From Calothrix sp. FI2-JRJ7 (GTDB lineage: Bacteria > Cyanobacteriota > Cyanobacteriia > Cyanobacteriales > Nostocaceae), in assembly GCA_019359675.1 (NCBI GenBank), contig JAHHGX010000022.1, positions 4,549-36,548 of the forward strand: 32,000 bases of DNA, given 5' to 3'. Shown in pieces: positions 3,178 to 30,696 of this stretch (positions within the stretch are counted from its first letter, which is position 1; every line of letters begins with the position of its first letter). Position numbers and translations under genes: made by a program. The notes under the pieces were generated by a model. It saw only the letters and a program-made list of their open reading frames with translations, had not been told where the DNA came from and made no database searches.

Positions 3178-4647
3178 TTACCTTTGTCGTTTAAGTTTAA
3201 TTTTTGTTTGTAGTTCTTCTTTAATCCTATTTAAAATTGATTCTTCGTCTAAGTTTTCTAATATCTTACTAATTACAAATTTTGGTCCATCCGAACCCCA
3301 TGTGGCGCCATTTGCAAGATAAGTTTTGGTAACATGTCCAATAGCATACGTAGAAAATCCGGCTACACCTGCCTGCGTAATTGCCACAGTAGCATAGGCG
3401 CCTAACGATAAACCTCCTGTAGCGGGTGCTGATATTCCTAGTAGTGTTTTTAATGAGCTTAAACCGAAGTTCGCTAGTAGTTCACTTGCCGAAATGCCAC
3501 CCATAGAAAGAGCAATTTTTTGCAGCAACTTAACGGCGCCTGCTTCGCTCATTGGAATACCATATAATTTAGACAAGCCAATAATTAATACTATATCTAT
3601 AACGGCGCCGCTTAATATATCTACTACAGTAATAGGGTTAAGGGCAATTGCCACAGCTTTTGTCATTGTCGCACGCCATATAAACGTATTTGCAGCAGCT
3701 TCGCGAATTGCTAGTTTGCGCTGCACTAACTGTTCGTTCACAACGTCAGCATATATCATCGAGTTTAGAGCAACCAGCGCTTTACCCTCACGGTGCAATA
3801 TCTCTAAAATCTTTAACTTTAAATCTTCTACCCGTGCTGTTCCTGTTCGTAACTGTACCCTTCGTGTACCATCAGGATTTTGTATTAGTGCGCGTACTAC
3901 TGGGGAAGCTGCTGACATGACTATTTCATCGGGGGATACTAGTTCCCGTACCCTTTCATCACGAATTTTTTCATAAATTGCCATGCGGTCAGCTTCAGGA
4001 TATTGGTCAATTTTATTAAAGACTAATAATATGGGTTTACCTGCATCACGCAACTGCGATAGTGCTTCATGCTCAACCTTCGTCATGTCACCCGATATTA
4101 AAAACAATATTAAATCGGCTTGCTTTGCGATATTCTGGGCTAAAGCTGCACGTGTTTCTCCATCAACTTCATCTAATCCAGGTGTGTCAATTAATTCCAC
4201 TTGCGATTGACCACCACTTTTTAACCGCACTCGCAACGCTCTTTCGTTGGCGCCGAATGTTTCTTCTGTTATACTCCAGTTTACACTTTGAGCAGAACGA
4301 GTCACACCATGTAAAGGACCCGTCTCAAAAACGTTTTGACCAACCAACGCATTTAATAAAGACGACTTACCACGTCCGACCATTCCAAACGCTGCTATTT
4401 GCACCACCATACGGTCGAGCTTTGACAGCATATTTTCTAAATCATTAATTTCGCTCTCTAAACCCTGCTGTTCAGTTGGTGTTAAGTCCAGCTTAGTCAC
4501 CATGTTACGTAGAGCAGCTTGTGCTTGACGGTAGTTTAACTCGGTCTGTATCTCATCAAAACTAAATATAGCTTTATCCATTTCCTCTTCCCATACCTGG
4601 GAAGTATCGTTTGTATGGTTAGAGTCTGGAGGCGTAGTCGAAGTCAT
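3178..4647 (-). CDS. GTP-binding protein with C-terminal DUF697-like membrane-associated domain
   Basis: 489-aa ORF. G1 is GMVGRGKSSLLNALVG, G3 is DTPGLDE, G4 is NKID. It has an N-terminal coiled-coil and a hydrophobic, glycine-rich C-terminal third. Confidence 0.8.
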   Translation of the reverse strand: MTSTTPPDSNHTNDTSQVWEEEMDKAIFSFDEIQTELNYRQAQAALRNMVTKLDLTPTEQQGLESEINDLENMLSKLDRMVVQIAAFGMVGRGKSSLLNALVGQNVFETGPLHGVTRSAQSVNWSITEETFGANERALRVRLKSGGQSQVELIDTPGLDEVDGETRAALAQNIAKQADLILFLISGDMTKVEHEALSQLRDAGKPILLVFNKIDQYPEADRMAIYEKIRDERVRELVSPDEIVMSAASPVVRALIQNPDGTRRVQLRTGTARVEDLKLKILEILHREGKALVALNSMIYADVVNEQLVQRKLAIREAAANTFIWRATMTKAVAIALNPITVVDILSGAVIDIVLIIGLSKLYGIPMSEAGAVKLLQKIALSMGGISASELLANFGLSSLKTLLGISAPATGGLSLGAYATVAITQAGVAGFSTYAIGHVTKTYLANGATWGSDGPKFVISKILENLDEESILNRIKEELQTKIKLKRQR

Positions 4648-4916
4648 AACGATTTTAGATTTTTATATAACTATTATCTTTAATCCTAATAATTTTTAAG
4701 GACGCATAACCGTAATTCTTCGTTTGTGTTCTTTGTGGTTGATTCCTTTTACACAATATTCAATAGTATATTTATTTACCACAGAGACACAGAGTTTACA
4801 GAGAGAAGAGGTTTAATAACCGTAAATGTTAACAAGGTGAACATAGCTGATGATGGGCAAATCTTTAATTATCACGCAATAAAGAGTCATCAAGCAATTT
4901 ACAAATTGCCTGATTA

Positions 4917-5135
4917 TCAAACAAATTCGCAATAAAACTGCGCTAAAATACAAATCGTATCGTTTCGTTTATATACAAAATTCGGCGCCTTTGTAATAGG
5001 GGTATTAGAATTTTTCGTGACTATACGAGCAAGTTCGATACTAGAAGCTGCCAGTTGTCGTAAAATATCAGGATGGGTGTTTATGTCTGCTGCCTGTTCG
5101 ATTAGAGAATTTGACATAAATTTTAGGTAGGTCAC
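4917..5135 (-). CDS. Small ORF, possibly a fragment of an NPNTP-type (leucine-rich-repeat-variant-like) repeat protein
   Basis: 72-aa ORF. INTHPDILRQLAASS...VTKNSNTPI resembles LRV/HEAT-like repeats. It is short with no clear RBS and could be a remnant. Confidence 0.25.
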   Translation of the reverse strand: MTYLKFMSNSLIEQAADINTHPDILRQLAASSIELARIVTKNSNTPITKAPNFVYKRNDTICILAQFYCEFV

Positions 5136-5162
5136 GCGAGATTCCCTAATCGTTTCATCGAA

Positions 5163-6140
5163 TCAAGTTGTATAGCTAGCGATTTTCTGTGATGCTAACC
5201 ATACATTGGTAACAGTATACTTTGCAAACACTGAATCTTTGGTGGCGCCGCATGAACCTTTGAGTTCAACAGTCTTTTTAACGTCTTTAAACAATTGCGC
5301 CTGATGACAGTATATAGAACCATCGGGTTTTTCAAAAGTCAGTTCGGCAATAATATTACTATTGTCTTCGCTTACCTCAACGATTCTACCAGCAACTTTA
5401 TAACTGAACCAGTCCCAACCGTAACGCAATATTAACTCTCGTTCCAAAACTTGGATTTCGGGTGGTAAAACCCCCCACCCCCGATACACCTGATTCAAAC
5501 ATTCGATATTACCGATGCGGGTGAGTATGGCTTTAAAAATATCTGGTTTCAAGGCGCCATAATATCTACCATCGGGTAAGTCTATCGCAGTTGGAGCAAA
5601 TCGATGCCCGCCAAAATGCGTAGTTTTCCACATCCGCACAGTATCGGGATATAAATTAGATACTAATTCGGAAGCGTAAAAATGAAAAGGGGCGCCGTAT
5701 CTAGCACAACAACGGTCATGACTACCGTGGGCACATACTAAAATATCTCGCTTTACACTTGTTTCAACTTCATGCTCAACAACATTACCGAGCAACCACT
5801 TTTTGACCAAACCAGCAACTTGTTCAATATTCGGCAAACTATATTCTTGTTTACGATATCCACTTCCTAAACCGTCCTTACGTTGATATATCAAAAGCGT
5901 TGTACGATTCGATTTATGAGATAGATTATTGGCTATCAACAAGAACTTTATAGGCAATCGCGCACGTTTGACTTCTTCTACTAAGTTTTTTAAGTTACTT
6001 GGAACCCACTTAGAATCAAACGCTTCAGATGCCCAAGGTGGAGGACACTCTACTAATATATAAGTTTGATGGTTGGCTGCACTGCCAATGATGTCTTCTC
6101 CCAAAGAACGCGCATTATCTGAACAAAAGAAATTACTCAT
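5163..6140 (-). CDS. Sucrase/ferredoxin-like (thioredoxin-like [2Fe-2S]) family protein
   Basis: 325-aa ORF. It has the characteristic VCAHGSHDRCCARYGAPF cysteine cluster and a later THFGGHRFAP motif. Confidence 0.7.
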   Translation of the reverse strand: MSNFFCSDNARSLGEDIIGSAANHQTYILVECPPPWASEAFDSKWVPSNLKNLVEEVKRARLPIKFLLIANNLSHKSNRTTLLIYQRKDGLGSGYRKQEYSLPNIEQVAGLVKKWLLGNVVEHEVETSVKRDILVCAHGSHDRCCARYGAPFHFYASELVSNLYPDTVRMWKTTHFGGHRFAPTAIDLPDGRYYGALKPDIFKAILTRIGNIECLNQVYRGWGVLPPEIQVLERELILRYGWDWFSYKVAGRIVEVSEDNSNIIAELTFEKPDGSIYCHQAQLFKDVKKTVELKGSCGATKDSVFAKYTVTNVWLASQKIASYTT

Positions 6141-6745: not shown

Positions 6746-6807
6746 GTAGGGTGCGTAACGCTATAACAATATTTCATCGAAGCGATAATCTTCTAGCGTT
6801 ACGCACC
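6746..6807 (+). repeat. GTAG-hairpin repeat (REP-like unit), copy A
   Basis: GTAG plus GGTGCGTAACGCTA (6750-6763), a 30-nt loop, then TAGCGTTACGCACC (6794-6807), giving a perfect 14-bp stem. It is flanked by a 23-bp direct repeat, ctttcgcaataaaat..acgaa, at 6722-6744 and 6815-6837. Confidence 0.8.
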
Positions 6808-6887: not shown

Positions 6888-7628
6888 ATGGCAGTTGCTT
6901 ATTTCAGCTTTTATGCAGAGCTAAACGATTTTTTACCCCGACATAAAAGAGAGGTTCGCATCAGTCATAACTTTACTCTTCGGGCATCTGTCAAGGATGT
7001 GATAGAATCCTTTGGGGTACCGCATCCGGAAGTGCATAGTATAGAAGTGAACTCAAAATTTGTTGATTTTACTTATATAGTGCAGGATGAAGACAATATA
7101 AACGTCTATCCTATCTCACTTGGTGCAACAGTCAAGGCAAGTATATCAGTTCAACCGCAACCAGAGACTTATAACTTTGTCTTAGATATCCATTTAGGAA
7201 AACTTGCAAATTCTTTACGGTTGTTGGGGTTTGACACGTTATACCGTAATGACTACGAAGACAAGGAACTTGCACGAGTTTCCAGTAGTGAGAATCGAAT
7301 TTTGCTAACGCGCGACAAAGGATTGTTGATGCGGAGTATAGTAGTGTACGGTTACTACGTTCGACAAACTGACCCGAACAAGCAAATAGTCGAATTGATT
7401 CAAAGATTTAACTTATTAAAACACGTGGCGCCGTTTCGTCGATGCATTCGTTGTAACGGATTGTTAAGCCAAGTAAACAAAGAGTTGGTAATATCAGAGA
7501 TACCAGAAACCGTCAAAAAACTCAACGATGAATTCCACCGTTGTCAAAATTGCCATCAGGTTTACTGGAAAGGTTCGCACTACGACCAGTTACACTCATT
7601 TATCGATAGGATATTAAAAGACACGTAG
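6888..7628 (+). CDS. Mut7-C RNase (PIN-like) domain protein with N-terminal ubiquitin-like domain and C-terminal zinc ribbon
   Basis: 246-aa ORF. FVLDIHLGKLANSLRLLGFDT and LLTRDKGLL are typical of Mut7-C. The zinc ribbon is CIRCNG...CQNCHQVYWKGSHY. The TAG stop (7626-7628) lies inside the GTAGGG terminus of the adjacent repeat element. Confidence 0.8.
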   Translation: MAVAYFSFYAELNDFLPRHKREVRISHNFTLRASVKDVIESFGVPHPEVHSIEVNSKFVDFTYIVQDEDNINVYPISLGATVKASISVQPQPETYNFVLDIHLGKLANSLRLLGFDTLYRNDYEDKELARVSSSENRILLTRDKGLLMRSIVVYGYYVRQTDPNKQIVELIQRFNLLKHVAPFRRCIRCNGLLSQVNKELVISEIPETVKKLNDEFHRCQNCHQVYWKGSHYDQLHSFIDRILKDT

Positions 7629-8437
7629 GGTGCGTAACACTATAACAATATCTCAAAGAAGCGATAATTTCGTAGCGTTACGCACCATATATATTGGTTA
7701 CAATTATGGTTTGCGGTGCGTAACGCTATAAATCACACACCATATATATTGATTACAATTATGGTTTGCGGTGCGTAACGCTATAAGTCACACACCATAT
7801 ATATTGATTACAATTATGGTTTGCGGTGCGTAACGCTATAAATCACACACCATATATATTGATTACAATTATGGTTTGCGGTGCGTAACGCTATAAGTCA
7901 CACACCATATATATTGATTACAATTATGGTTTGCGGTGCGTAACGCTATAAGTCACACACCATATATATTGATTACAATTATGGTTTGCGGTGCGTGACG
8001 CTATAAGTCACACACCATATATATTGGTTACAATTATGGTTTGCGGTGCGTAACGCTATAAGTCACACACCATATATATTGATTACAATTATGGTTTGCG
8101 GTGCGTGACGCTATAAGTTACACAGTATATATATTGATTACAATTATGGTTTGCGGTGCGTGACGCTATAAGTCACACACCATATATATTGGTTACAATT
8201 ATGGTTTGCGGTGCATGACGCTATAAGTTACGCACTATATATATTGGTTACAATTATGGTTTGCGGTGCATGACGCTATAAGTTACGCACTATATATATT
8301 GGTTACAATTATGGTTTGCGGTGCGTGACGCTATAAGTTACACACTATATATATTGGTTACAATTATGGTTTGCGGTGCGTGACGCTATAAGTCTTATCG
8401 CTACGTTGAAGTTTTTTCGTAGCGTCACACACCCTAC
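7625..8437. mobile_element. REPIN-like composite: two inverted GTAG-hairpin units bracketing a 55-bp tandem array
   Basis: The left end is GTAGGGTGCGTAACACTA (7625-). The right end is TAGCGTCACACACCCTAC (8420-8437), its inverted complement. The flanks extend the symmetry (cac.../...gtg). There is no ORF inside. Confidence 0.7.
7687..8395 (+). repeat. Tandem array of 12 full units plus one partial unit, exact 55-bp period
   Basis: The unit is atatatattgRttacaattatggtttgcggtgcRtRacgctataaRtYaCRCaSY. Unit starts fall at 7687, 7742, 7797 ... 8347 with no indels. Variation is confined to about 6 positions, and neighbouring units share variants (units 10 and 11 are identical). Confidence 0.95.
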
Positions 8438-8559
8438 GTGCCTGATTGGGTTTGTTGGTTGTTTTGGGTGAGATGTGCGAGAATAAGAAACAAATAAACA
8501 GTCTTCGATACATTTGTTAACAAAGAGAATTTATAGAATGTTGAAATTAAGGCAGAATT

Positions 8560-10032
8560 ATGTATTCAGCAAAAGCAGCAGCACTTTTAATATTAGATGC
8601 TCAAAATAGAACGAAAGCTATACCAGAGAAGTTAGAAAGTGAATTAACCTATGTAGCAGGGTGGTGCTACTGGTATAAAGGAGCAAGTCTCGTCAAAGAG
8701 TTTGCTTACTCTTGTTTGGAGTTGTTAACGAAAGAGAAATTAAACTTGATATTGAAAGAATTAGGGTTAACGGTAGCGAAGTCATCGACAAAAGAAGATA
8801 TAGTAAAAGTATTAAAAGAAGTTAAGATTACAGAGTTACGTGCAATTTTAACGAAAAAAGTTATGCCAGACTTTGAATTGTCGGTAGTGACTTTTGAGAA
8901 ATTGTTCCGTATATCTACAGCAAACCGTCGCAGACTGCAAGAAATAAAAGATGCTCTACCCATTCTTTACTGGGGAGAATCAAAATATGGACAGTATCCA
9001 GTTTTCAGTTTATTGAAAGTATTAGAGATTTTACATGCAGATAAAACGTTATTAAAACAGTTTTATGATTATGTCGAAGAAAAGTTGACGGCAAAAGCAA
9101 AACAAATTGCACGAGAGAAAGAATTAGAGCTTTCGTTTAAAGAGAAGTTTTTGGGTAGAGTTGCACAATATCCAGAGATAGCGAAGAATGATAATATAAA
9201 ACAGTTAGTTAAACAAGAGAAATATCGAGCAGCACATAATTTTTTAAATAATTTAATTCAGCAGAAAGAAAGAATTGACCGTGAGAATGCAATTGAACTT
9301 TCGTTCAAATACGAGTTTACAGAAAAAGCGGCAATATATCCAGATTTGATTTATGATAATAATCTTCAACAGTTGATTAAAAAAGAATATTATAAAAGTG
9401 CGTGCAGATTATTGAATGAGTTAATTCAAAAACAAGATAAAATCAAGCGTCAAAGAGCATTAGAGCTTTCATTTCGAGACAAATTCGTCCAAAAATCGGT
9501 AGAATATCCAGATTTAGGACAAAGAAAAAATATTCAAAAGCTACTTATCGAAGAAAAATATCAAGCTGCATATAACGCATTATCTAATTTAATTCAAGAA
9601 CAAGAAAAATATGCACGACTTCAGCAGCAATATTTAGACTTGTGTGAGGAGTTGGGTACAGAAGCAGAACAACACAAAAATTTAAATGCGTTAACAAAAG
9701 CTATTCAAGAATTACAGGTCATTCATAAAGAATTAACGAACAGCAAGACAATGGGAGACTTAGCAAAATCGTTAGATAATTTGCTGCAACAAGGAATAGA
9801 AATTTTTAGCCAAACTGCTGACCGTCAATTTCAGTATTCCAATGAATTACAATCAGATAACAAAGCGTTAAAGTTTTGTCAGATGGTTTTATCAAGCAAA
9901 GGGAACTGTCCAGAAAATCAATTACGGTGGAAAAATATTCAAAACGTTCCAGAAGCTATTGCCAATTACGAAGACTTAATTTTTTCTCATCCGGTACTAC
10001 TGCAAATTCAGGGTGTCTCAGAACTTACGTAA
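8560..10032 (+). CDS. Hypothetical helical protein with three internal repeats of about 57 aa
   Basis: 490-aa ORF. The repeats are ELSFKEKF..YPEI..NIKQLVKQEKYRAAHNFLNNLIQQ, ELSFKYEF..YPDL..NLQQLIKKEYYKSACRLLNELIQK and ELSFRDKF..YPDL..NIQKLLIEEKYQAAYNALSNLIQE. No family recognised. The gene contains no GGCGCC. Confidence 0.65.
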   Translation: MYSAKAAALLILDAQNRTKAIPEKLESELTYVAGWCYWYKGASLVKEFAYSCLELLTKEKLNLILKELGLTVAKSSTKEDIVKVLKEVKITELRAILTKKVMPDFELSVVTFEKLFRISTANRRRLQEIKDALPILYWGESKYGQYPVFSLLKVLEILHADKTLLKQFYDYVEEKLTAKAKQIAREKELELSFKEKFLGRVAQYPEIAKNDNIKQLVKQEKYRAAHNFLNNLIQQKERIDRENAIELSFKYEFTEKAAIYPDLIYDNNLQQLIKKEYYKSACRLLNELIQKQDKIKRQRALELSFRDKFVQKSVEYPDLGQRKNIQKLLIEEKYQAAYNALSNLIQEQEKYARLQQQYLDLCEELGTEAEQHKNLNALTKAIQELQVIHKELTNSKTMGDLAKSLDNLLQQGIEIFSQTADRQFQYSNELQSDNKALKFCQMVLSSKGNCPENQLRWKNIQNVPEAIANYEDLIFSHPVLLQIQGVSELT

Positions 10033-10201
10033 AAACCACACGAAATATGTCCATTTGTTACATCTATTTGATGTATTATAACTGAATTATTAAAAAAATA
10101 TTAACAAGTTTCAACATAAGTAAAAAATTGTGTATTTTGATAACTCTACATGTCATGCTGAAATTTTGAGTTATAAACGAATTAATTTATAATCCAAAAG
10201 A

Positions 10202-10675
10202 ATGATAAGGCGCCGCTTCATCGTCCGTTTTGTAATTACACTACTGATACTTGGTATACTATCAGTAATATATATCATTTTAATGCCTTTGCATGACATA
10301 GATTGTAACGCAGAACCATTTATGTCATCCAAAGTCGAAAAATTCCAAGTAAGTGCAACAAAAGTAGTAGCTCAACCTTGGTTAGGGCAACACATGGTAT
10401 ACGGTATTTTTACAGTCCCCGACGAATATAAAGAAACCCAATTTTTTATATTAACAGTGAAAGGCGCCGGAAGTTTTTGCGAAAAACCATTTGGAAACAA
10501 ACTAAAAGTAGACGATATAATTGCTCAACCCGGTACACACTTAATAAAAGGCTATATCAGAACAAGATTAGCACTGAAATCAATTTTACAAGGTTTATAC
10601 AGTAGTATTAGTAGTAAAGATAACTGGACGTTAACATATCCTAGTAAAAAGGTTATAATTACAACAAGTACATAA
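10202..10675 (+). CDS. Hypothetical protein with N-terminal transmembrane anchor
   Basis: 157-aa ORF. It has an RRRF motif followed by a hydrophobic helix (VITLLILGILSVIYIILM). It contains 2 GGCGCC sites. No family recognised. Confidence 0.5.
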   Translation: MIRRRFIVRFVITLLILGILSVIYIILMPLHDIDCNAEPFMSSKVEKFQVSATKVVAQPWLGQHMVYGIFTVPDEYKETQFFILTVKGAGSFCEKPFGNKLKVDDIIAQPGTHLIKGYIRTRLALKSILQGLYSSISSKDNWTLTYPSKKVIITTST

Positions 10676-10797
10676 ACATATATTAATGCAAGTACCCGCA
10701 GTAAGATGGATACTAAATTTGTACGTTGTTCTTGGTTTGGCTGTAACATATTTATATTACGGGAAAGAGCGTAAGAAGCAATAATTAAGGAGTAACT

Positions 10798-12258
10798 GTG
10801 ACTACGTACAACAGTTTGCCAACTAACGAGCATGATGTCAACTTAGAACTGGCGCCACAAGAAACAGTATTTCAATGGACAAAACAATGGTATCCGGTTG
10901 CTGTTGTTGATTTTTTAGACTCATCTCGTCCTCATGCAATGCAATTATTTGGAAAAAATATCGTATTGTGGAAAGATGGCTCTGGAAAATGGCGATGTTT
11001 TGAAGATGCTTGTCCTCACCGATTGGCGCCTTTTTCAGAAGGACGAGTAGAAGCAGATGGTACATTAATGTGTGCTTACCATGCTTGGCGTTTTGATGGT
11101 GAAGGAAATTGTGTTAACATTCCCCAAGCTAAAGATGAACAAACGGAGTCGCGACATTGCTCAAATTCTAAATCTTGTGCAGTTTTTTATCCAACTCAAG
11201 AACAACAAGGATTATTGTGGGTATGGGCAGAGTCAGGAGTAGAAGCACAACTTGAAAGTCAGTCATTTCAACCGTTAATTACCCCAGAGTTGGAAAACAA
11301 GTCAGATAAAGTAGTAAAGTTATTTTGGAATTTTCGTGACCTGGCGTATGGATGGGACTTTTTCATGGAGAATGTTTCTGACCCAACACATGTTCCTGTC
11401 TCGCATCATGGAATTGTTGGCAACCGATACAAGGACGCTAAATATTACGACATGATTCGCTTGAGCGAGATATCAAGTCAATCCGCGTTTGCTTATGAAA
11501 TTACACCAACTGCCCCAAATATAAAGCAAGCTATTCATGATTTTCAACCACCTTGTTTAATGCGGATTGTTTCAACTTTATTTGATGGTGGTCAACTGAT
11601 TCTAATTTTATATGCTACTCCGACTCGTCCAGGATGGTGCCGTCATATTGGGTGCCAGATATTAGTCAAAAATGACCAAAACAAAACACCACCAGGTTTA
11701 GGATTTTTTGGATTACCGATGCCAACTTGGTTAGGTCATATTCTCGCTTCGTTATTTCTACACCAAGATATGGTTTTTCTTCATTATCAAGAAAAGATTA
11801 TAGCTCAAAAACAAGGTAGATGGTTGAACAAAGTTTTCACGCCTAACCCCCAAGATAAGATGATAATCGCGTTTCGCAATTGGTTAGAAAATAAAGCAGG
11901 TGGTGGCATTCCTTGGGCGCCAGAATGTAACTCACACCTTCCTACTCCGGAACTAGATAAACAAAAGCTATTTGATGTTTGGACAGCACACACCCAGCAT
12001 TGTAGCGTTTGTCAAAATGCTTTAAAAAATATAAATAGGTTGATTATCTCTGCTTTTGCAACATCTATAATAGTTACATTTTTGAGTGTAATTATTGATG
12101 CGCGCGCTGTTGCAGCAAAAACAGTTGCATCTTTTCCTCCTACTAGTTTTTGGTTAGCTCTTTTAGGCGCCATTGCCTCTGCTAGCATAGGTTATCTACT
12201 TCTAAAATTGCGTCGCTTGTTTTACGTATATGAGTTTGAACACGCACGTAATAACTAA
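10798..12258 (+). CDS. Rieske [2Fe-2S] oxygenase of the pheophorbide-a-oxygenase (PaO/Tic55-like) family
   Basis: 486-aa ORF. The GTG start is preceded by AAGGAG at good spacing. The Rieske motif is CPHRLAPFSEG...CAYHAWRF. The mononuclear-iron region is NVSDPTHVPVSHHG. A PaO-type C-terminal CSVC motif is followed by TM helices. Confidence 0.85.
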   Translation: MTTYNSLPTNEHDVNLELAPQETVFQWTKQWYPVAVVDFLDSSRPHAMQLFGKNIVLWKDGSGKWRCFEDACPHRLAPFSEGRVEADGTLMCAYHAWRFDGEGNCVNIPQAKDEQTESRHCSNSKSCAVFYPTQEQQGLLWVWAESGVEAQLESQSFQPLITPELENKSDKVVKLFWNFRDLAYGWDFFMENVSDPTHVPVSHHGIVGNRYKDAKYYDMIRLSEISSQSAFAYEITPTAPNIKQAIHDFQPPCLMRIVSTLFDGGQLILILYATPTRPGWCRHIGCQILVKNDQNKTPPGLGFFGLPMPTWLGHILASLFLHQDMVFLHYQEKIIAQKQGRWLNKVFTPNPQDKMIIAFRNWLENKAGGGIPWAPECNSHLPTPELDKQKLFDVWTAHTQHCSVCQNALKNINRLIISAFATSIIVTFLSVIIDARAVAAKTVASFPPTSFWLALLGAIASASIGYLLLKLRRLFYVYEFEHARNN

Positions 12259-12285
12259 ACAAGCTGGACATAATTACTATTCCAA

Positions 12286-12312
12286 AATTTGACAACCATT
12301 GGTTGTCAAATT
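12286..12312. promoter_or_regulatory. 27-bp near-perfect palindrome between the Rieske and padR genes (operator or bidirectional hairpin)
   Basis: AATTTGACAACCA t TGGTTGTCAAATT has 13-bp perfect arms. It lies 28 bp after the Rieske stop, and no T-run follows. Confidence 0.4.
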
Positions 12313-12345
12313 GCAATACCTAATTCTTTCCTAACTAGCAGCGAT

Positions 12346-12420
12346 ATACTCAAATCAACTATTACTCAACTAATTGAGCAAAATTCATGTTTTATACTGT
12401 ATACTCAACAAAGTGAGTAT
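12346..12420. promoter_or_regulatory. Cluster of TACTCAA motifs and inverted repeats upstream of the PadR gene (candidate autoregulatory operator)
   Basis: atactcaa at 12346. tactcaactaattgagca at 12362-12380 (CTCAA/TTGAG). atactcaacaaagtgagtat at 12401-12420 (ATACTCA/TGAGTAT), 46 bp before the ATG. Confidence 0.35.
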
Positions 12421-12465
12421 ATCAAGCTTTATTTATAAAAGGTAAGGAAAGAATAGAATTAAGTT

Positions 12466-13011
12466 ATGGCAATATCTCATGCGATTTTGGCGGCATTATT
12501 AGATTCAGCGTGTAGTGGTTATGATTTGTCGAAGCAGTTTGCGGGGACTGTGGGTTTTTTTTGGCACGCAACACAGCAGCAGATTTACAGAGAGTTGAGT
12601 AAGTTAGAGGAAGAGGGACATATTGTTGCAGAAGTAATTAGGCAAGAAGGGCGCCCAGACAAGAAGGTATTTTCGGTTACAGAGGTAGGGAAAGAATATC
12701 TACGTAAATGGATATTAGAACCATCAGAAGTTAGTCCAATGAAAGATGAGTTGTTAGTAAAAATATTTGCAGGTGAAGTGGCACCGAAACAGAAAATTAT
12801 CAGAGAATTAGAAAATCACCGCCGACAGCACCAAGACAAGTTAAAAGCGCATCGAGCTATTGAGGAGAAGCATTTTGTAAGTCCGCAAACTTTACCTTTG
12901 GCAGAAAAGTACCGCTATTTAACGCTTCAGCAGGGAATACGCTACGAAATTGAATGGTTAAAGTGGTGTGAAGATACTATAAAGTTTTTACATGAAGATA
13001 ACTCTAATTGA
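12466..13011 (+). CDS. PadR-family transcriptional regulator
   Basis: 181-aa ORF. The N-terminal winged helix is ILAALLDSACSGYDLSKQF...QQQIYRELSKLEEEGHI...GRPDKKVFSVTEVG, with a C-terminal helical dimerisation region. Its stop overlaps the downstream ORF. Confidence 0.8.
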   Translation: MAISHAILAALLDSACSGYDLSKQFAGTVGFFWHATQQQIYRELSKLEEEGHIVAEVIRQEGRPDKKVFSVTEVGKEYLRKWILEPSEVSPMKDELLVKIFAGEVAPKQKIIRELENHRRQHQDKLKAHRAIEEKHFVSPQTLPLAEKYRYLTLQQGIRYEIEWLKWCEDTIKFLHEDNSN

Positions 13012-13019
13012 ATTGGGAT

Positions 13020-13895
13020 ATGAAAAAATTATTAATTACAGGCGCCAGTGGTTTTCTAGGGTGGCATATAATCGAGGTAGGACGCGAACACTACGAAGTT
13101 TACGGTACATATAACTCGCACACGTTAGAAGTAAATGGTGCCAGTTTATTCAAAGCTAACTTATCAGACTTTGAAGAACTGAAACAAATCTTTACAAATA
13201 TTAAACCAGATGCAGTAATTCATACAGCAGCAATTTCGCAACCAAACTATTGTCAAAACCATCCCGAAGAGTCTCACGCAATTAATGTCACAGCATCAGC
13301 AAACATAGCAGGATTGTGCGCTGAGTATTCTATACCATGTGCATTTACATCAACTGACCTGGTATTCGATGGTAAAAATGCACCATATAAAGAAACAGAT
13401 ACAGTCAACCCTGTAAATTTATACGGGGAACAAAAGGTCTTAGCAGAACAAGCGATGTTAAAAGAATATCCTAAAACAGCTATATGTAGAATGCCATTAA
13501 TGTTTGGCGCCGCAACACCCACAGCAAAAAGTTTCATGCAAGGGTTTATACAAACACTGCAATCTGGCAAAGAATTAAAATTATTTACCGATGAATTTAG
13601 AACACCAGCAAGTGGAATAACAGCCGCCAAGGGATTACTATTAATGATAGAAAAACAATATCACGGTATTATTCACCTAGGTGGGAGAGAAAGAATATCT
13701 CGCTACGACTTCGGAAAGTTAATGATTGAAGCATTTCATTTACCAGATACAAACCTAAAAGCATGTAAACAGCAAGACGTACAAATGTCGGCGCCACGTC
13801 CCGCAGATGTATCATTCGACAGTACAATAGCATTTACATTAGGATACAACCCATTATCAATAAAAGAAGAATTGGTAGGGTGCGTAACGCCATAA
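13020..13895 (+). CDS. NAD(P)-dependent SDR-family epimerase/reductase (RmlD-like substrate-binding fold)
   Basis: The ORF track starts at TTG 13008. ATG 13020 gives MKKLLITGASGFLG (Rossmann GxxGxxG) at the N-terminus. A YGEQK catalytic YxxxK motif is present. The last 7 codons (VGCVTP plus stop, 13875-13895) are supplied by a GTAG-hairpin repeat. Confidence 0.8.
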   Translation: MKKLLITGASGFLGWHIIEVGREHYEVYGTYNSHTLEVNGASLFKANLSDFEELKQIFTNIKPDAVIHTAAISQPNYCQNHPEESHAINVTASANIAGLCAEYSIPCAFTSTDLVFDGKNAPYKETDTVNPVNLYGEQKVLAEQAMLKEYPKTAICRMPLMFGAATPTAKSFMQGFIQTLQSGKELKLFTDEFRTPASGITAAKGLLLMIEKQYHGIIHLGGRERISRYDFGKLMIEAFHLPDTNLKACKQQDVQMSAPRPADVSFDSTIAFTLGYNPLSIKEELVGCVTP

Positions 13896-13937
13896 CAACA
13901 TTTCAACGAAGCAAATAATCTTGTAGCGTTACGCACC
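13875..13937 (+). repeat. GTAG-hairpin repeat (REP-like unit), copy D
   Basis: GTAGGGTGCGTAACGCCA ... TAGCGTTACGCACC. It is followed by a partial extra arm (aacacgcacca). It overlaps the 3' end of the SDR gene. Confidence 0.8.
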
Positions 13938-22012: not shown

Positions 22013-22281
22013 GTAGGGTGCGTGACGCTACGAAAAAAATTCAACGTAGTAATAAGACTTGTAGCAGTCACGCACCTATGTTATAAACGTCACGCACCTA
22101 TTTATAATTGTCACGCGCTTTGACGATTAATATATTATTTGGTGCGTAACGCCTGATGATTATTCGTTTGCTCTCGGTGTTATTATAATCACGCGCTTTG
22201 ACGATTAATATATTATTTGGTGCGTAACGCCTGATGATTATTCGTTTGCTCTCGGTGTTATTATAGCGTCACGCACCCTAC
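22013..22281. repeat. REPIN-like composite of the GTAG-hairpin family with an internal 2 x 78-bp tandem duplication
   Basis: Perfect 18-bp inverted termini, GTAGGGTGCGTGACGCTA (22013-) and TAGCGTCACGCACCCTAC (22264-22281). The interior unit tcacgcgctttgacgattaatatattatttggtgcgtaacgcctgatgattattcgtttgctctcggtgttattata is repeated at 22111 and 22189. Confidence 0.85.
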
Positions 22282-30522: not shown

Positions 30523-30585
30523 GGTGCGTGGCGCTACGAGTCTTATAATTACATTGAAGTTTATTCATGGCGCCACACACCCTAC
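30523..30585 (-). repeat. GTAG-hairpin repeat, copy G (reverse orientation), carrying a GGCGCC site in one arm
   Basis: GGTGCGTGGCGCTA ... TGGCGCCACACACCCTAC. Relative to copy C (8374-8437), an arm change A>G is matched by T>C on the other arm. Confidence 0.75.
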
Positions 30586-30632: not shown

Positions 30633-30696
30633 GTAGGGTGCGTGAAAGCTATTACTATCAATCAATGTAACGCAAAATACAGTGCTTTTACGCACC
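30633..30696 (+). repeat. GTAG-hairpin repeat, copy H (divergent arms), plus a partial terminus at 30712-30735
   Basis: GTAGGGTGCGTGAAAGCTA ... GTGCTTTTACGCACC. The arms differ from the consensus but still pair. ccaccctacttgg recurs at 30578-30590 and 30723-30735. Confidence 0.65.

Follow-up and report, generated by a model that had tools for sequence, protein, structure and literature searches.

Repetitive extragenic palindromes (REPs) carrying a GTAG tag are documented in Anabaena, Nostoc and Cyanothece, with families GTAG-12, -15 and -16 in Anabaena and Nostoc (PMC3733652), and measure 20–40 bp, with a stem of 5–13 bp and a loop of 2–20 bp (PMC3733652, Table 1; Di Nocera et al., 2013). Tandem clusters of REPs have been described in E. 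coli, where the tandem copies of the bacterial interspersed mosaic element BIME-2 show good conservation at any one locus and differ in number from strain to strain (PMC3333891; Ton-Hoang et al., 2012), and in P. fluorescens SBW25, where REPs and REP doublets forming hairpins (REPINs) occur in ordered tandem clusters that include flanking sequence, some with 12 copies (PMC3116915; Bertels & Rainey, 2011), one class being made up of copies of just one REP type at even spacing (PMC3116915). A further point of comparison is the tandem array of NsiR1 (Ionescu et al., 2010), a 60-nt small RNA (sRNA) that is encoded near hetF, has a DIF motif at −35 and has been reported from every heterocystous genome (PMC4030482; Muro-Pastor, 2014). 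Here we describe a 55-bp tandem array in a 32,000-nt stretch of Calothrix sp. FI2-JRJ7 (GenBank assembly GCA_019359675.1, contig JAHHGX010000022.1, positions 4,549 to 36,548, forward strand; hereafter the window, to which coordinates refer unless another locus is named). The array fits the known tandem REP clusters and departs from them in its large elements, its all-direct internal units and the truncated, tag-less form of the unit that was copied. We consider it probable that local tandem amplification between the two GTAG-tagged REP-like elements of a head-to-head dimer gave rise to the array, which would be a young minisatellite specific to this strain.

The array is far beyond chance. Tandem Repeats Finder places it at 7683–8394 on the + strand (12.9 copies, 96% matches, 0% indels, score 1235), and both the repeat-finding run, which returned 13 in-register copies each spaced exactly 55 bp, and the unit table give the same picture; in-register homology covers 7677–8394, or 13.05 units. 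An earlier note, made from the sequence alone, had claimed a strict 55-bp period without indels over about 13 units, which was borne out. Each unit consists of a 28-bp AT-rich spacer (ATATATATTGRTTACAATTATGGTTTGC; first of 13 copies at 7687–7714, + strand), which contains TACAAT and occurs nowhere else in the window, and a 27-bp hairpin, GGTGCGTRAC-GCTATAA-RTYACRCACC (first of 12 copies at 7715–7741, + strand); as the note had said, the hairpin and the TACAAT hexamer are present in every unit. All 13 internal 5′ arms read on the + strand, the two terminal elements being the only inverted ones. The 12 full units vary at eight positions (11, 34, 36, 46, 48, 51, 54 and 55) rather than the about six first counted, and seven of these eight differences are transitions. 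Adjacent units differ at a mean of 2.0 positions, against 3.1 for all pairs (permutation p = 0.019), and the difference between units rises with their separation along the array (Spearman rho = 0.54), so that the sharing of variants by neighbours, also claimed earlier, stands. The spacer is the same in all 13 units bar one position, and because of this identity a CRISPR array was ruled out, as it had been in the note. A coding array was likewise ruled out, there being no open reading frame (ORF) of at least 50 aa inside the array.

The array is contained in a block of 813 bp whose edges, CACGTAGGGTG (7622) and CACCCTACGTG (8430–8440), are the outer ends of two inverted hairpin elements of 62–63 nt, at 7625–7686 (+ strand) and 8375–8437 (− strand); these account for the inverted termini reported in the earlier note. 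The left element, of a subtype with a GTAAC arm and a loop of about 30 nt, folds as RNA to −22.2 kcal/mol (z −5.6; as DNA, z −3.7), and the right element, of a GTGAC-arm subtype, gives z −4.0 as RNA (+ strand folded) and z −3.6 as DNA (− strand folded); the four full elements that were folded span z −4.0 to −5.6 as RNA, or −3.6 to −3.7 as DNA. Both belong to a dispersed family of 62–64-nt hairpins, the GTAGGGTGCGT elements, with eight copies in the window. In each element an unpaired GTAG precedes a 14-nt arm (GGTGCGTRACGCTA), and a conserved loop, about 30 nt long, separates this arm from its complement, which ends in ACGCACC; all eight copies start with GTAG-GGTG(C/T)GT, end with ACGCACC and keep the GTAG outside the stem. 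The other copies lie at 6746–6807 (+ strand, upstream of the Mut7-C gene), 13875–13937 (+ strand, over the 3′ end of an RmlD-like gene at 13008–13895), 22013–22076 (+ strand) and 22219–22281 (− strand), which together form a second doublet (22013–22281), 30523–30585 (− strand) and 30633–30696 (+ strand, a variant with GTGAAAGC arms). Every copy is intergenic or overlaps just the final codons of a gene, and in both doublets the two elements are inverted with GTAG...CTAC facing outward, which makes them head-to-head dimers. The family thus resembles the published GTAG REPs (PMC3733652) in having an imperfect palindrome with an unpaired GTAG on one side, in its many dispersed extragenic copies, mostly just downstream of genes, and in its head-to-head dimers with outward tags; it differs from them in its length, its 14-bp stem and its conserved loop of about 30 nt.

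The repeated unit can be traced to one of the terminal elements. When the 32 bp at 8395–8426 are removed from the right element (8375–8433), what remains is GGTGCGTGACGCTATAAGTCACACACC, the exact hairpin of units 6 and 9, and the missing 32 bp are flanked by two GTC triplets; moreover, the span of in-register homology places the repeat joint between GTC and ACACACC. At 27 bp the collapsed hairpin falls within the published size range of GTAG REPs, although it lacks the GTAG. Its + strand does not fold more stably than shuffled sequence does (z about 0). The one left-type unit that was folded does better on the − strand (z −3.0 as RNA, −1.7 as DNA), because the mismatches there become G-U or G-T, and the right-type unit, folded as DNA only, was poor on both strands. 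Across the units, 81% of cells in the hairpin columns pair, against 83% in column shuffles, and no compensatory pair was seen. Unit-to-unit variation weakens the hairpin, which is not maintained.

With BIME-2 the locus shares a tandem arrangement of REP and short linker, high identity within the locus (13 units, 96%), GTAG-tagged hairpins and a presence that differs between genomes, the array being absent from Rivularia sp. IAM M-261, the closest genome, and from related assemblies. BIME-2, however, alternates REPs with inverted REPs (y, z2), whereas the internal units here are all direct, truncated and devoid of the GTAG tag; and whereas a model involving the REP-associated tyrosine transposase (RAYT, or TnpAREP) exists for BIME-2, no RAYT is linked to the family in the window. 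As for the REPINs of SBW25, an inverted REP doublet is the basic entity in both cases; the differences are the phylum, the sequence itself and the nesting here of an array between the two halves of the doublet, with a unit that is a deletion derivative of one half.

The gene order of a Suc_Fer-like gene, the Mut7-C gene and a gene for a 490-aa protein is kept in the complete genome of Rivularia sp. IAM M-261 (AP025018) and in several related assemblies. The orthologous intergenic region in Rivularia, 237 bp long, has no array and instead contains another hairpin element. Homology between the window and Rivularia breaks at about 7619 and restarts at about 8456, and a block of roughly 830 bp here replaces about 150 bp of the closest relative, between the Mut7-C gene and a conserved upstream region of the next gene. 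The Mut7-C gene (6888–7628, + strand; 246 aa, ubiquitin and RNase domains, Pfam PF14451 and PF01927) encodes a protein with 94% identity to its Rivularia counterpart, and the two part company at the C-terminus, which reads ...IDRILKDT before the stop in the window and ...IDEILNQSSSFIN in the orthologue. The stop codon of the window gene, TAG at 7626–7628, lies in the GTAG of the left element, as the earlier note had stated, and the last codons too come from the inserted block. Past the block, a stretch without Rivularia counterpart (8438–8455 in the alignment) leads to the region common to both genomes (8456–8559, + strand; the alignment covering it has 87% mean column identity overall, non-homologous columns included), and any native promoter in this shared region has thus been kept downstream of the array.

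In more distant relatives a conserved minus-strand ORF of 58–63 aa lies between the Mut7-C gene and the next gene (L008 10751–10927, L057 2702–2893, L056 1702–1881), an ORF missing from both the window and Rivularia sp. IAM M-261, and the site holds a small ORF or other sequence in the relatives P0002, P0003, P0004 and P0005. Two GTAG elements of the window do have orthologous copies in Rivularia, each internally deleted: that of 6746–6807 is reduced to GTAGAGTGCGTTACGCACC (L005 9996–10014), and that of 13875–13937 (L005 14551–14575) keeps the GTAG and 5′ arm and has lost 46 bp between CCATAA repeats. A single variant copy of the element was found in L008. We take the orthologous, internally deleted copies in Rivularia to mean that the GTAG family predates the split of the lineages and is prone to indels, and the doublet with its array is new in the lineage of the window. 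The element that occupies the array site in Rivularia (L005 ~10845–10957) is itself a hairpin repeat of another sequence, CCATATTGGCAACGGAT...ATCCGTTGCCAATGTGG, and a related 9-mer repeat, AACGGATGT, ends contig L056 (1984–2010); this looks like another dispersed element family.

Additionally, the same element family has given rise to tandem repeats elsewhere. The second doublet, which lies where a lipase-like gene and a PAS histidine kinase gene diverge from a common intergenic region, encloses a perfect 78-bp repeat in two copies (22111–22265) and a 21-bp repeat in 2.3 copies (22067–22116), the latter made of the 3′ arm and AT-rich filler. In Calothrix sp. NIES-4105 (AP018290; L016 4662–4880), a 54-bp array of 4.1 copies with 100% identity, intergenic between divergent ORFs, has a unit consisting of the element's 5′ arm, the loop and TTTTT, and closes with GCGTCACGCACC-CTAC; it was the only relevant hit of a three-arm periodic pattern run against species-representative genomes, the other 38 of its 39 matches lying in unrelated, mostly high-GC organisms. 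The repeat joints of the 78-bp, 21-bp and 54-bp arrays all fall in or adjoining the 3′ arm. Since the units differ while the architecture is the same, we regard tandem amplification as a property of the element and not as the signature of a conserved product.

The anatomy of the block, the exact deletion relationship, the absence of the array from relatives and the recurrence of arrays in the family together carry the minisatellite interpretation, within which the order of events and the slippage mechanism that we infer would be as follows. Two elements of 62–63 nt would have come to lie inverted, with GTAG outward and about 28 bp apart, just past the end of the Mut7-C gene, forming a dimer similar to a REPIN or BIME; the 28-bp spacer of the present array would be the original linker of that head-to-head dimer, and the doublet at 7625–8437 would once have existed with a single such spacer. 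Since each element is a hairpin, the 3′ arms of the inverted neighbours (GTTACGCACC on the left, GTCACACACC on the right) are direct repeats, and misalignment between them may have duplicated the spacer and the right element. A slippage deletion of 32 bp at the GTC microhomology would then have collapsed one copy to the 27-bp hairpin, and the resulting direct repeats of 48–55 bp could have grown stepwise to 13 units by replication slippage or unequal recombination, a stepwise expansion that would have left the positional gradient of variants now observed.

Several points weigh against this interpretation. None of the closer or more distant relatives examined yielded a dimer with just one 28-bp spacer, so the starting state is a reconstruction, and the copy number comes from one assembly. 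Further, 11 of 11 units keep a promoter-like GTCACA-N16-TACAAT at threshold level and the spacer is near-invariant, which could reflect either youth or constraint. Slippage and enzyme-driven amplification by a RAYT would also look alike at this locus.

We saw no evidence of a selected function, and the consequences of the insertion that can be named are side effects: the C-terminus and stop codon of the Mut7-C protein were replaced, and a longer block now precedes the conserved upstream region of the next gene. The window also shows the 3′ ends of genes being rewritten by REP-like insertions, two of its stop codons coming from GTAG elements; the second is the TAA of the RmlD-like gene, whose last codons and stop are supplied by its element (13875–13895), likewise in Rivularia. 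On the minisatellite interpretation the locus is a clean natural example of a hairpin repeat dimer turning into a minisatellite, with the starting parts, the unit-making deletion and the stepwise spread of variants all legible in one 813-bp block; it would extend tandem REP clusters, best known in enterobacteria and pseudomonads, to large-genome heterocystous cyanobacteria. The array is also a likely hypervariable marker for strain typing, and we do not see in it a new biological system.

Considering what else could have produced the same architecture, the amplification might have been catalysed by a RAYT, as proposed for BIME-2 of E. coli: the enzyme would cut in the linker or close to the foot of the hairpin, and strand transfer or rolling-circle copying would then add hairpin-plus-linker units. 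In vitro, TnpAREP does recombine sites in REPs and linkers, and models of the amplification have been put forward (PMC3333891); RAYT homologues are common across the Nostocales; one element family has yielded three independent arrays; and the elements bear the unpaired GTAG, with first stem bases, GGTGCGT, that resemble the GATGCGT of RAYT-flanking REPs. In Kovacikia, Gloeocapsa, Calothrix sp. PCC 7507 and Tolypothrix, the REPs flanking the RAYT genes begin GTAG-GATGCGTTA..., a head similar to the GTAG-GGTGCGTAA... seen here. The RAYT-flanking REPs that we saw (GTAGGATGCGTTA...), however, differ from the window family in the rest of the stem. Moreover, the internal units have lost the GTAG/CTAC tag and their stems are degraded, which would make them poor substrates by the E. 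coli rules, whereas a unit joint at the GTC microhomology suits slippage. A check for a RAYT-type transposase, which the earlier note had called for, found none in the window or in the related loci fetched (tblastn, Pfam). Starting from E. coli rayT, a tblastn search of plasmids led to the RAYTs of Kovacikia and Gloeocapsa and from these to two protein searches, and no RAYT from Rivularia or Calothrix NIES-4105 was among the best 120 matches of either. On balance we think RAYT-driven amplification unlikely. The RAYT homologue on plasmid pGLO7428.01 of Gloeocapsa sp. PCC 7428 (L049 595–1156) is split by a frameshift and unannotated, and still has GTAGGATGCGTTACG-type REPs on its flanks.

The other alternatives concern what the array does, or whether it is assembled as it stands in the cell. 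With NsiR1 it has in common about 12 direct tandem repeats, a heterocystous host and a promoter-like element in each unit, and the earlier note had cited that array as a precedent; each 55-bp unit would then have its own promoter (GTCACA-N16-TACAAT) and yield a short hairpin RNA. Strict periodicity and the near-invariant spacer could be read in this way, 11 units match the sigma-70-like pattern, each at the scan minimum (9/12), and the region holds 13 promoter-like sites where shuffles have 6.6 ± 2.1, a comparison in which the repeated sites do not count as independent. The comparison fails in other respects: the 55-bp unit includes the promoter-like site, no intrinsic terminator is predicted, the DIF motif TCCGGA occurs four times in the window and never within 7600–8450, and none of the ORFs scanned is a hetF-like neighbour, the adjacent genes being those for Mut7-C and the 490-aa protein. 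The sense-strand hairpin folds about as well as shuffled sequence (z about 0) and its variation is not compensatory, Rfam gave no match even at E up to 10, and, whereas reports place NsiR1 in every heterocystous genome, the closest genome has no such array at its orthologous locus and the unit was found in no collection searched, only in this genome. We therefore regard an NsiR1-like sRNA array as highly improbable. A function in cis, in which hairpins stacked in the 3′ untranslated region stabilise or attenuate the transcript of Mut7-C, or weak promoters in series tune the 490-aa gene by copy number as a contingency-type switch, is very doubtful: the array does lie between two same-strand genes right after a stop codon, a favoured REP location (PMC3733652), and its promoter-like hexamers point toward the 490-aa gene, but the internal hairpins have weak folds on the mRNA-sense strand, the 490-aa gene keeps its conserved upstream region intact downstream of the array, and nothing similar exists in any relative examined. 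It also seems very unlikely that REP parts have here given birth to a tandem sRNA locus, with strain-specific phased transcripts driven by the GTCACA-N16-TACAAT of every unit, or that the array is a snapshot of a RAYT copying a truncated, tag-less hairpin; the latter, if true, would reveal the way in which REP clusters are seeded, and perhaps other repeat-spacer arrays too. Finally, the copy number or internal arrangement might be an artefact, an expansion or collapse of a shorter repeat during assembly. Short reads gave the only independent assembly (Logan SRR12347730), which breaks at both array edges, with one contig stopping at window position 7712 and the next beginning at 8399; the window's assembly is thus the one source of the copy number of 13. 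Nevertheless, both junctions are reproduced there exactly, at 100% identity, and an artefactual expansion would not create a non-periodic pattern of eight variant sites with a positional gradient; the chance that the array is such an artefact is very small.

The minisatellite interpretation thus keeps one of the two possibilities raised in the earlier note, a satellite created by REP/REPIN-type biology, for which the family of eight GTAG copies, the exact 32-bp deletion derivative, the absence from the closest genome and the two further arrays all speak; the NsiR1-like possibility was not supported, for want of conservation, a DIF motif, a terminator, a hetF neighbour, an Rfam match or compensatory change, and with a promoter match only at the scan minimum, so that overall the note was partly supported. 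It had also proposed that absence of the unit elsewhere would weaken the mobile-element reading. The unit is indeed absent elsewhere, and yet this looks at the wrong object, the dispersed repeat being the terminal elements. An invariant 22-mer that covers most of the spacer had no exact match in 185,579 species-representative genomes or in JGI metagenome contigs, and a degenerate 26-mer of the collapsed hairpin had none in JGI metagenome contigs, the sole collection scanned with it. The left element with two units had no blastn match in PLSDB plasmids. Rfam, applied to the window at gathering thresholds and to 7300–8800 at E up to 10, returned only chance miRNA-like hairpin matches far below threshold, and a literature search by sequence strings gave only chance primer matches. 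The supplements of PMC3733652 contain no consensus that matches the window elements.

The gene downstream of the array (8560–10032, + strand) is, as the earlier note had it, of unknown function: its 490-aa product has no Pfam match, and both Rivularia and L057 likewise have the gene adjoining that for Mut7-C. The protein contains three internal repeats of about 50 aa (ELSFKEKF…YPE, ELSFKYEF…YPD and ELSFRDKF…YPD). Further from the array, the window (4647–5163 and 10032–12466) lacks a four-gene AraC/SnoaL/NmrA/SDR block that is present in Rivularia (L005 4554–8413 and 12535–12807), and has in addition to the Rivularia genes a 157-aa ORF and a Rieske/PaO oxygenase gene.

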